DNA from: a virus
Taxonomy: Duplodnaviria; Heunggongvirae; Uroviricota; Caudoviricetes
Virus record (IMG/VR): IMGVR_UViG_2541047910_000003
Coordinates: 1-55,048 of that record
Strand: one strand, 5' to 3'
DNA: 55,048 nt
The position numbers are program-made. This document shows positions 18,001 through 21,000 of this stretch, in pieces; position 1 is the stretch's first letter, and each line of letters opens with the position of its first letter.

Positions 18001-21000
18001 GTAAGAGAAAAATTGAAATTAAGAGCAGAGGCTAACGGAAGGTCAATGAACTCTGAGTTATTACAAATCGTTCAGGATGCTCTCTCAAAGCCATCATCAA
18101 TTGTAGGCTATCGAGACGAAGCTGAGCGAGTCGCGGATGAGCAATCTGACGTTGTTAAGAAGATGGTCTTTGAAACGCTGAAAAATATTTATAGCAAAAG
18201 TAAGTTATAGGCTTATGACGTACAGTTAACCATATCGATATTGGCTCGCGTGATGACAAATGAAAAAAAGCAATGGACTCACATTAAAACTTGACGGAAC
18301 CACCCCTGGCCAGCTGTCAATGGCTAAGTTGGTCAAGTATATGTCTGCTCTCGTAGATCTATACGGTTCTGCAGATTCTGTTCACTTCGACTGTGTAAGT
18401 GAAGGATCGGCTGACTTAAATGCATGGGTCGATAATGATATTTGTTATAACGCTGTCATAGCAAGGGCCTCTCTCTCAGCCAAAGAGAAATCACCCGCGT
18501 ATCAAAAAATTGTTAATTTACTGGAACATGATGGTTTTTCAGCGAAACTACTCGGACGAAACCACTCAACCATTATCGCATTCCCGCGAGTAAAAAAGGA
18601 GCCAATCCCTTTACTCATAACAAAAACATCAGAAGTTCAAGGAAGGCTATACAGTGTTGGCGGAAAAGACAATTCAATACCTGTGCGTATTGAGGGAGCC
18701 AACGGCGAAACATTCAAGTGCGAGGCAACCCCTGATTTGGCGGCAGCTCTTGGGTCCCATCTATTCAAATATATTAGGGTTAAAGGAGATGGGTGCTGGG
18801 AAAAAAAGAACAACAAATGGGAGCTAAAGAAACTAAAAATAACTTCATTTGTATTGCTCAAAAAATCATCACTCAAGGATGCTATTAATGCTATCAAGCA
18901 AGTTCCTGGAGATCAGTGGTCCGAGGAACGCGATGTTGATTCAATCCTTAGGACTCTGAGGAAGATAAATTGCGAGTAATTTTAGATACCAATATTCTGG
19001 TATACCTACTATCAGATATAGAACACGATTATAGATTATCTGACCCTATACTTGGTTCTGAGATTCCAGATGCCAAAAGAAGAGCAGAAGCTCTTGTTGA
19101 TCGAATAGATAACAAGAACGGGACAATCATCGTTCCAACTCCTGTATTGGCGGAGTTTTTAGTTGGAATCCATAAAGATTACCAACAAGAAAAACTGAAT
19201 GTTATCAAATCGTTATCGTGCTTCGAAACTGTATCGTTTGATGAGTTGGCTGCTATTGAATGCGCATCGATACCAACATTAAAAGAATTAAGGAAAATTA
19301 GCACAGAAGGTACAGCAAACAAAATTAAGTTTGACAGACAAATAATAGCAATTGCAAGAGCAATTAATGCTGACGAGGTATGGACTCATGATAAGGGAGT
19401 GTTTGAGCGTTGCAAAAGTCTCAATATTCCTGTGTTCACATTATCATCAATAGAACCAATTCCGGTTCAAAGTCTCATGGAGTTCTTACACGATTCAGAC
19501 GATCAGAGATTACACTAAAATATAATTTTTATGCATCCGTGATAATTACATCCGTCACGGATACATAAAGCTATAGCCAAAAGTGGACAAACCTTTATCT
19601 CACTCCAAACCATCTGGTATCCTGCGCAAAACTAAGGAGGTTGGTGTGTTTGGTATATTAACGAGAAGCAAGATAAAAAAATTAAGGGCAGAACTCGCCG
19701 AAACACAAAAACTGGCTTCACATTTTTACAAAATGAAATACGACGCTGAAGAGCGTGCATTTGTTGAGTTATGCGATTTATCTATTCGTATGGGAGTAGA
19801 GCCAGATGTAGCGGCAAAAACCCAACAAGGCATTGATATACTTGCAGATGTTGTTTTAAACAGGCAATATGCGTTTTATCTAAACGAGAAGGCCATTCAG
19901 ATTTACTCTCAAATCTTCCTCCTAGAAAAAAGAAGAGGAACTCACGATCGAGAAGAGTGGTTAAATGAAGTTGTTAAAAAATCTGGCTGGGAAGTTGTTT
20001 CATCAGAGCTACCTCTTATTTGTGCTGATTTAATCGAAGAGGCAAAAGAGCGCCTATCCGATGGCTAAACGAATCCATCCGTGGATTACTAATTACTCCC
20101 GCTCCATTCCGCTTAGCGATGCCACAATCCCAGCCCTCGCTAAGCGCTGAAACTCTTCGTTTCCGACGGTATCACGTATCGCTTTTACAGCAGCTTTATT
20201 TGCCATAAATCTGCGTTCAGCCGCCGCTAATGCACCATCACTTGCCCCAACCTTAACTGCCTTTGTTGCCTCTTGAACAGCCTTTTCAATAGCGTAACGA
20301 CCACTGCGGGATGCAGCTAACTTTTCTATCGTCCCTTTAGCTATAGATCCAGAAACAGCCCCCACAACACCGCCAACAATCCCTCCACCAGTGGTGCCAA
20401 CAATAGCCCCTGATGTTGAATTGCCTATTGCATTGAGAACTGTCATGACAGCTTTTGGCAGTCCTTGCTCAAGAGAGTTAATTGCCGGTATAGAGCGCCC
20501 CGTATGCTCTACATATCGCAGTGGTCTGGTTGCTGCTCTGGCAAGGTCGCTGTATGCCCTAGCAATCTTACCCATTTCTGGCGAGTGCTTGCTAATGGCA
20601 GTAATATTCTGCGGCGTAAGGATCGACGCTATATGGAATACGCCAGCAGACTCTGATTTACCGCCACGCCCCCCTTGCGATACCGCATCTTGTAATATTG
20701 ATGCAATTGCTGGAGATCGCTCAGACTCTGGCAGTGCGCCAATAATCTGATGAAACTTTCCTGTCCCACTTTTTGATGAATTTTGCAAGGCTTTAATACC
20801 ATCAGTGACTAACTGATCAGTTGCAAGGTTTCTAAACGCTGCTTCAGCCTGTTCTTGTGCTGTAAATCTTGCTTTTGACAGATCATTAGCTTTTTGCCAG
20901 TCATCAAGAAAACCGCCATTTTGAGCCATTATGCGCATATCTTCCGTTGCTGCATCACGAAGCTCCGCCATGCGCCTTGCCGTATTTGCCTCACCAGACC

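Follow-up and report, generated by a model that had tools for sequence, protein, structure and literature searches.

A predicted PIN nuclease coupled to a predicted OB-fold partner in the mnt operon of a P22-like prophage: a candidate anti-phage module

We analyzed a stretch of 55,048 nucleotides from a tailed phage (Caudoviricetes; positions 1 to 55,048 of IMG/VR record IMGVR_UViG_2541047910_000003). This whole stretch is referred to below as the window, and coordinates are positions in it unless a locus is named. The DNA is that of a P22-like Escherichia coli prophage. In its P22-type immI region, three open reading frames (ORFs), which we label A, B, and C, lie between the repressor gene mnt and a gene-16-like ORF. 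They share the strand of mnt and point towards the gene-16-like ORF, which is on the other strand, an arrangement already described in an earlier note on this DNA that was made from the sequence by eye. The main subject here is the pair A-B, in which the gene for a basic protein with a predicted OB-fold runs into the gene for a predicted PIN-domain nuclease. We regard A-B as, almost certainly, an obligate nuclease module.

The features on which the argument turns are as follows:

17900-17928, plus strand: Pmnt, TTGAGA-17-TATCAT (10/12 in a consensus scan)
17956-18210, plus strand: mnt, 84 aa, repressor that maintains lysogeny; it heads the operon in which A-B lies (Pfam Arc, 5.7e-27; Repressor_Mnt, 4.8e-13)
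18260-18979, plus strand: gene A, 239 aa, ATG start, basic (pI 9.15)
18959-18965, plus strand: Shine-Dalgarno (SD)-like GAGGAAG in the terminal part of A, separated by 4 nt from the TTG of B, read from the sequence
18970-19518, plus strand: gene B, 182 aa, acidic (pI 5.13), TTG start, N-terminus MRVILDTNILVYLL
19646-20068, plus strand: gene C, 140 aa, GTG start, soluble, all-helical
20093-22216, minus strand: gene-16-like ORF, convergent to A, B, and C

Comparison with orthologues gave dN/dS values of 0.05-0.13 for A, B, and C (about 0.1 for B and about 0.06 for C, with dS mostly saturated), indicating purifying selection. Because the structural models of A (pLDDT 83) and C (pLDDT 89.8) are also confident, we take the three ORFs to be real genes. 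None of them encodes a transmembrane (TM) segment (maximum 19-residue Kyte-Doolittle value 0.75-1.19).

The coupled pair A-B

A and B overlap by 10 nt, with the start of B lying within the 3′ end of A. This had been taken as a sign of translational coupling, and both the ORF coordinates and the SD-like GAGGAAG bear it out. Close junctions of this kind are the rule among homologues: the start of B was offset from the stop of A by -10, -4, 0, +1, or +2 in nearly all distinct junctions. In 45 distinct junctions, the start codon of B was TTG in 33, GTG in 11, and ATG in a single case, so that 44/45 use TTG or GTG. A weak start coupled to an upstream stop is what would be expected if a dangerous enzyme were to be made below the level of its partner.

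The two genes also travel together. Among the loci collected by searching with A, a B homologue with a PIN domain was encoded directly downstream in 76/76. The PIN gene was frameshifted in two of the 76 (L021 and L032), both with an intact A, and the reverse decay, a broken A next to an intact PIN gene, was not seen in the collected loci. When viral contigs were searched with B instead, full-length A was directly upstream in 55 of the 56 informative loci. The A-B arrangement was found again in 3/3 cases when distant homologues of B were looked up (Providencia, Marinobacterium, and a Ca. Binatia metagenome bin). We also considered whether one locus on a metagenomic viral contig (L148, 2254-3405) was a natural A-PIN fusion and rejected the idea: there, an A lacking its stop codon reads in frame into a degenerate, frameshifted PIN sequence for which we detected no Pfam match, and the locus is probably a product of decay or of an assembly error.

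The suggestion that the 182-aa ORF encodes a PIN domain was confirmed by a match to Pfam PF01850 (E 4.1e-10, 40.8 bits, gathering cut-off 23.6), and we read B as a predicted PIN-domain nuclease. Its acidic residues D6, E62, D91, D122, and D141 did not vary among 51 distinct homologues (30-99% identity) or in a separate alignment (A5); the catalytic centre is therefore maintained. B scored below the curated VapC cut-offs of NCBIfam (27.1 vs 140 bits for NF047863, 19.9 vs 73.6 for TIGR00028, and 14.8 vs 80 for NF047959). A profile search of PDB sequences found no significant solved relative, the best matches being weak ones to VapC toxins (E 0.15-0.45). PHROGs places B in a family of "unknown function", and NCBI names its homologues either "type II TA system VapC family toxin", where TA stands for toxin-antitoxin, or "PIN domain-containing protein".

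For A, which had been characterized as a large partner without a recognizable motif, our searches gave the same picture. We detected no match in Pfam or NCBIfam (E<=1), in PADLOC, or among PDB sequences, using both the single sequence and a profile. The sole database match was PHROG 19868, again of "unknown function", and NCBI annotates the homologues of A as hypothetical. A profile of A was then scanned with HMMER against 1.84 billion cluster representatives. At E<=1e-3 it returned 1,560 proteins, of which 295 also passed E<=1e-30; with few exceptions, these are full-length proteins of about 240 aa. Judged by these profile matches, A belongs to a large family that has neither a name nor a Pfam entry, its size of about 1,560 clusters referring to clusters at 50% identity. 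In three loci (L133, L135, and L141) A carries a long N-terminal extension, in which we found no Pfam domain.

An AlphaFold2 model of A, built from 29 homologues, has three parts: an alpha/beta N-domain (residues 1-107), an OB-fold (about 118-199), and a helical tail of low confidence (205-239). Fold searches with the model found no counterpart of the N-domain. The predicted OB-fold is canonical, a barrel of five strands in which a helix lies between the third and the fourth, and it resembles the SSB/RPA/aaRS-type folds that bind single-stranded DNA (ssDNA) and tRNA anticodons, the match covering about 80 residues at 10-16% identity. By sequence, A was not a member of the SSB or tRNA_anti families (Pfam, and PDB sequences with single sequence and profile). 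The pI of 9.15 is supportive of a possible binding of ssDNA or RNA. Invariant in a diverse alignment of A (A3) were Y27, G128, G135, A161, G176, W187, and the near-C-terminal R234. Among closer relatives (alignment A2), W220 and R234 of the tail are both invariant; of these two, R234 alone holds in the diverse set.

Genomic contexts and distribution of A-B

The P22 annotation gives the order Pmnt, mnt, orf59a, and t_mnt, followed by PsieA and sieA and then the convergent gene 16. The orf59a slot of P22 thus lies within the mnt operon, before t_mnt, and A-B occupies this slot. The gap between mnt and A is 49 nt, no terminator was predicted in it, and mnt-A-B is probably transcribed from Pmnt. 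In the P22 lysogen, Mnt is expressed from Pmnt, and genes in the mnt operon should therefore be expressed in the lysogen, as should genes that lie behind cI. Expression in the lysogen had been expected from the location of the genes, and for A-B the operon position supports it.

A-B is found behind mnt in this window and in P22-like prophages of Salmonella salamae. It is found behind a cI-type repressor, on the same strand and opposite cro, in lambdoid prophages of Enterobacter and Providencia and in many Pseudomonas prophages, and it also follows a cI-type repressor in the Pseudomonas phages Pacha_bin_1 and Ostro. The 41 distinct upstream neighbours on the same strand included 16 with Peptidase_S24, 16 with HTH_3 (partly the same proteins), and 5 Mnt proteins. 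In most phage contexts, the space in front of A-B is too short for a separate promoter, and the pair would ride on the repressor transcript. The position strongly suggests a lysogen-expressed immunity function. The mnt operon of P22-like phages and the cI operon of lambdoid phages serve as interchangeable landing pads for the same cargo, which is a reason to look behind repressor genes when mining for immunity functions. Outside prophages, A-B occurs in small chromosomal islets. In Pectobacterium, the islet also has a Fic protein and insertion sequence (IS) elements; in Marinobacterium, A-B adjoins an Mrr-like nuclease, and in Ca. Binatia, an IS1595 transposase.

The pair was present in 44 IMG/VR viral contigs, as against 8/72,556 plasmid records, several of which are megareplicons. 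The full cassette occurred at 99.5% identity in 19/5,426 complete Escherichia coli genomes, ST131 strains included. A larger number (329/5,426) matched at least part of the queried mnt-A-B-C region, mostly just its mnt end, and most P22-like phages are without A-B. In the isolated-phage collection, none of the three genes was represented by an enteric copy, and the only relative was a 33%-identical A in Pacha_bin_1 and Ostro.

Two further arrangements were seen among the collected loci. In prophages of the Pseudomonas syringae group (L013-L015, 4177-4854), a gene for a DUF4145 protein lies between cI and A-B; the repressor operon can therefore accumulate several cargo genes. Pantoea latae NZ_MWUE01000022.1 (L016/L019; also IMG/VR 2791355159_000004, L041/L057) carries two diverged copies of A-B about 12 kb apart, whose A proteins are 70% and 57% identical to A of the window. 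With two copies on one contig, paralogous modules can coexist in one prophage region.

Possible functions of A-B

The pair had been called undescribed, and in this respect the earlier note was overtaken. WP_001263856.1, which in RefSeq is the PIN protein of the E. coli loci with 99.5% identity, is listed in Table S10 of DefensePredictor (Science 2026, PMC13092281) as a "Predicted novel defense gene" with a mean log-odds of 6.8, and homologues of B already bear the name VapC family toxin. DefensePredictor gives WP_001263856.1 as one of 1,041 uncharacterized clusters, without a homologue among known defence proteins and by prediction only; 94 of its predictions were tested, and 45% were validated (PMC13092281). 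The PIN protein has thus been flagged by machine learning, the module as such was not characterized before, and its partner is of a new kind.

The same study describes DS-5, which consists of the E. coli PIN protein WP_021513009.1 and the DUF5830/AcrIF4-like WP_021513008.1. DS-5 defends; it requires both genes as well as the PIN catalytic residues, and it shows no toxin-antitoxin behaviour (PMC13092281). Like A-B, it is made of two genes with the partner first and the PIN ribonuclease second, and by analogy we consider it the best functional precedent for defence by a PIN protein with a non-antitoxin partner. We rejected an identity of the two systems. B shares with DS-5B only the 8-residue motif VxLDTNIL (BLASTP E 0.16), and the profile of A aligned to DS-5A with an hhalign probability of 0.2%. 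A has no Pfam match, whereas DS-5A is a 166-aa protein with a zinc-ribbon-like DUF5830, and DS-5B, at 376 aa, is far from the 182 aa of B.

A second comparison is one of position. The genes behind cI, rexAB in lambda, occupy a classic defence slot. Like rexAB, A and B are two genes directly downstream of a prophage repressor and on its strand, where expression in the lysogen is implied, and homologues of A-B hold the exact rexAB slot in lambdoid prophages of Enterobacter, Providencia, and Pseudomonas. We found no similarity to rexAB in sequence or architecture: RexB is a membrane protein, whereas A and B have no membrane segment and the effector here would be a soluble nuclease. A RexAB-type system in the slot behind the repressor defends Pseudomonas putida.

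Weighing these observations, we lean slightly towards the view that A-B defends against phages, and we picture its action as follows. A-B would be an autonomous mobile two-gene module that sits in the lysogeny-repressor operon of temperate phages and is made continuously in the lysogen. B would be a catalytically active, metal-dependent ribonuclease of a VapC-like PIN type, kept at a low level by translation from a TTG that is coupled to the end of A. A, present in excess, would bind B and keep it silent. The C-terminal tails of the VapB and FitA antitoxins plug the acidic active sites of VapC and FitB, and the flexible tail of A with its invariant arginine recalls them; by extension, R234 and the tail of A may reach into the acidic active site of B. 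The OB-fold would serve as the sensing or targeting part by binding a nucleic acid that appears or changes when another phage infects the cell, or else by binding the RNA substrate. B, once released or directed, would cut host or phage RNA (tRNA, rRNA, or mRNA), and this cleavage would stop the infected cell together with the superinfecting phage, in the manner of a toxin-antitoxin-like abortive infection.

Several points weigh against a defence role, which we infer from sequence and context. PADLOC-DB v2.0.0 gave 0 families for A, B, or C at E<=1, so that the statement that no named defence system could be matched holds here as it does for DS-5, and we found no homology of A-B to any validated defence protein. 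The match of A to the OB-fold is limited to about 80 residues at 10-16% identity, and not every protein with an OB-fold binds nucleic acid. Both the A-B complex and the part given to R234 are proposals, and transcription from Pmnt through A-B is deduced from the absence of a predicted terminator. In prophage P1 of P. putida, PP_3897 and PP_3898, which may or may not be homologues of A-B, lie directly behind a cI-like repressor, and their deletion was without effect on two phages. NCBI, moreover, labels homologues of B "type II TA system VapC family toxin", and the upstream partner, the coupled and presumably low-expressed PIN protein, and the presence on mobile elements fit a plain addiction pair equally well.

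In such a plain type II TA (VapBC-like) addiction module, A would be an oversized antitoxin and B a VapC-type toxin, and the pair would stabilize its element, with no anti-phage role, by poisoning cells in which the prophage or islet is lost or inactivated. Much of the arrangement is what is known from VapBC systems (VapC of Shigella and Leptospira, a tRNA(fMet) endonuclease, and FitAB): the partner gene comes first and overlaps the toxin gene, the toxin start is weak, the pairing is strict, the PIN acidic residues D6, E62, D122, and D141 are kept, and the modules reside on mobile elements. PGAP, too, names B homologues VapC family toxin, the nearest, insignificant PDB sequence matches of B are VapC toxins (E 0.15-0.45), and a frameshifted PIN gene next to an intact A (L021 and L032), never the reverse, is the asymmetry expected of a TA pair. 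The proteins themselves fit less well. A, at 239 aa three times the usual antitoxin size, has no RHH, AbrB, HTH, or Phd DNA-binding domain (no Pfam match at E<=1) and instead has the predicted OB-fold and an unmatched N-domain; this agrees with the remark that the partner is far larger than a VapB-type antitoxin. B is 182 aa long, has extra segments and, in D91, a fifth acidic residue that never varies, and it stays well below the curated VapC cut-offs (27 vs 140 bits and 20 vs 74 bits). The pair is also very rare on plasmids (8/72,556), where addiction modules abound, and in phages it mostly has no room for its own promoter and rides within the repressor operon. Addiction as the sole function therefore strikes us as unlikely, although the addiction and defence readings overlap and are not exclusive, since many TA pairs also defend.

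The repeated placement behind Mnt or cI in unrelated phage backbones could instead point to a nuclease that serves the phage itself in lysogeny control, by trimming leaky ant or early mRNAs or by tuning the switch. Lambda RexA, which modulates the lysis-lysogeny decision, offers an analogy, and the OB-fold could give RNA specificity. We hold this to be improbable, given that the pair also occurs outside prophages (Pectobacterium, Marinobacterium, and Ca. Binatia) and that most P22-like phages do without it (full cassette in 19/5,426 E. coli genomes, 329 with at least part of the queried region). It is also exchanged between phages with different regulatory circuits and therefore cannot depend on the transcripts of one phage. 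A weapon against other elements, in which the PIN protein would act on host or rival RNAs (retron, CRISPR, or satellite transcripts) with A as specificity subunit, has the smallest chance of being right in our estimate, and that a very slim one. Phage accessory slots do carry anti-defence genes, and an OB-fold joined to a nuclease is compatible with targeted RNA cleavage; however, we found no similarity to known anti-defence proteins, expression from a repressor operon is more in keeping with protecting the lysogen than with acting early in infection, and the weak start and tight coupling suggest a nuclease that is restrained rather than deployed.

Returning to defence, a bolder form of this reading is possible, and we put it forward tentatively, as something we would sooner doubt than assert. 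A-B would then be a new and widespread sensor-effector immune family, in which the OB-fold of A reads an infection cue (phage ssDNA, replication intermediates, or the state of tRNA) and licenses the PIN RNase, rather than A acting as a labile antitoxin. At least three unrelated backbones (Mnt-type P22-like phages, cI-type lambdoid phages of enterics, and those of Pseudomonas) would have built A-B into the operons of their repressors, where it would act as a transferable second line of immunity, and the A family would be a new class of immune sensor. Already if A-B defends, it would be a compact (1.26 kb), widespread PIN-based system with an OB-fold partner in place of a DNA-binding antitoxin, and it would open a direct way to study how a prophage keeps an RNase silent and what turns it on. 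Through its presence in clinical E. coli lineages (19/5,426 complete genomes), it could affect the host range of phages used in therapy.

Gene C, the sieA slot, and the surrounding immI region

Gene C concerns a different slot. The relevant features are as follows:

19527-19570, plus strand: extended hairpin directly 3′ of B at the place of P22 t_mnt, core AUCCGUGAU...GUCACGGAU, with AU-rich flanks
19583-20068, plus strand: third ORF as first given, 161 aa, GTG
19615-19648, plus strand: sieA-type leader with SD and GTG start (TGGTATCCTGCGCAAAACTAAGGAGGTTGGTGTG)

The third ORF had been given as 161 aa without a TM segment. The absence of a TM segment stands, and the length does not: we place the start of gene C at GTG 19646 (140 aa) because the conserved SD AAGGAGG (19634-19640) precedes it, because RefSeq makes the same call, and because sequence conservation among variant loci ends exactly at this start codon, the leader being kept in all of them (also in L090, 3463-3499). 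On this reading, 19583-19645 is leader and does not code.

The 34 nt that precede sieA in P22, TGGTATCCTGCACAAAACTAAGGAGGTTGGTGTG, are identical to 19615-19648 at 33/34 positions. What follows differs from prophage to prophage. In E. coli prophages with identical A-B, the cargo behind the junction is either gene C or one of three others: a protein of 150 aa whose N-terminus resembles a signal peptide (L033/L039, 5301-5753), an 83-aa hydrophobic protein (L035/L040, 5324-5575), or a 130-aa protein with a TM segment and a coiled coil (L038, 5324-5716); in Salmonella, it is a membrane peptide of about 40 aa (L008/L009, about 6290-6420). Since divergence begins right after the start codon, 19615-19648 is a precise cassette-exchange junction of E. 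coli and Salmonella P22-like prophages, shared by C and at least four other unrelated cargo genes. Some of the alternative cargos could be SieA-like exclusion proteins.

C itself was modelled by AlphaFold2 as six helices (pLDDT 89.8, pTM 0.73). We found no match for it in Pfam, PHROGs, NCBIfam, PADLOC, or PDB, and its homologues fall into 5 clusters only. Unlike P22 SieA, an inner-membrane protein, C is soluble; it is also all-helical, and BLASTP between the two gave E 14, that is, no similarity; the comparison was with P22 SieA, the other two SieA types lying outside it. Together with the lack of TM segments in A, B, and C, this supports the view that none of the three resembles SieA. A promoter scan for C returned only a weak 9/12 match at 19494-19521.

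C also occurs apart from A-B. Morganella has mnt followed by C, then a 195-aa gene of unknown function and gene 16, and in E. coli P22-like prophages without mnt and arc, C is present alone; conversely, A-B occurs without C. The single three-gene operon in the sieA slot that the earlier note proposed therefore falls apart into two independent modules in two slots. C stands in the place of sieA and keeps the leader, SD, and GTG of that gene, as the leader identity shows, and is an independent lysogenic-conversion cargo outside the A-B system. A-B, in turn, replaces orf59a in the mnt operon, and the 59-aa protein of P22 orf59a is unrelated to A or B. Both modules hold places of P22 immI accessory genes, and the accessory region is in this way resolved into an orf59a slot and a sieA slot, of which the latter swaps at the start codon. 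This view should be useful for the annotation and engineering of P22-like prophages in E. coli ST131 and Salmonella.

RNA folding of 19510-19650 gave a minimum free energy (MFE) of -32.1 kcal/mol (z -2.7). The strong hairpin between B and the leader of C (19527-19570) has no U-tract, contains the perfect palindrome ATCCGTcACGGAT, and is identical in E. coli loci with A-B. It may be an attenuator, a stability element, an operator, or a protein-binding site. Between the convergent stops of C and the gene-16-like ORF, a 6-bp hairpin (20072-20087, AATCCA tccg TGGATT) shares the motif ATCCGT with the hairpin after B and was not called by the terminator scan.

Other features of the immI region and of the prophage are as follows:

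14323-16401, minus strand: tailspike gene, P22-type immI region
16502-17425, minus strand: ant (Pfam P22_AR_N and P22_AR_C)
17427-17493: sar antisense RNA (Rfam, 77.7 bits)
17933-17905, minus strand: Pant, TTGACA-17-TATATT (11/12 in a consensus scan)
44500-45150: cI of the prophage itself
52430-53590: integrase gene, adjoining tRNA-Thr(CGU)

The mnt gene of the window is 85% identical to P22 mnt at the DNA level, arc is present between the ant side and mnt, and Pmnt and Pant overlap face-to-face (17900-17933) in an arrangement identical to the P22 annotation. With ant, sar, arc, Pant/Pmnt, and mnt all found, the P22-type immI setting is confirmed as complete. Between arc and ant lies a 73-aa ORF (17489-17710, minus strand) that belongs to phrog_11805 (unknown function, E 3e-51), is hypothetical in RefSeq, and is absent from P22 itself.

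Next to the tailspike gene, the stretch 9700-14300 has a low GC content (about 0.35) and few ORFs. It includes a gene for a serine resolvase or invertase (12143-12682; Pfam Resolvase, 1e-33) and may be a degraded or invertible element. The late-regulatory region of the prophage carries tRNA-Thr(UGU) and tRNA-Asn(GUU) genes (37348-37503), which we note here because VapC-type PIN nucleases often cut tRNAs. Finally, downstream of the prophage's own cI and on the same strand, in a rexAB-like slot, two small ORFs of 111 and 114 aa overlap by 4 nt (45435-46111). We found no Pfam match for either, and by their position they are another candidate lysogen-expressed pair.

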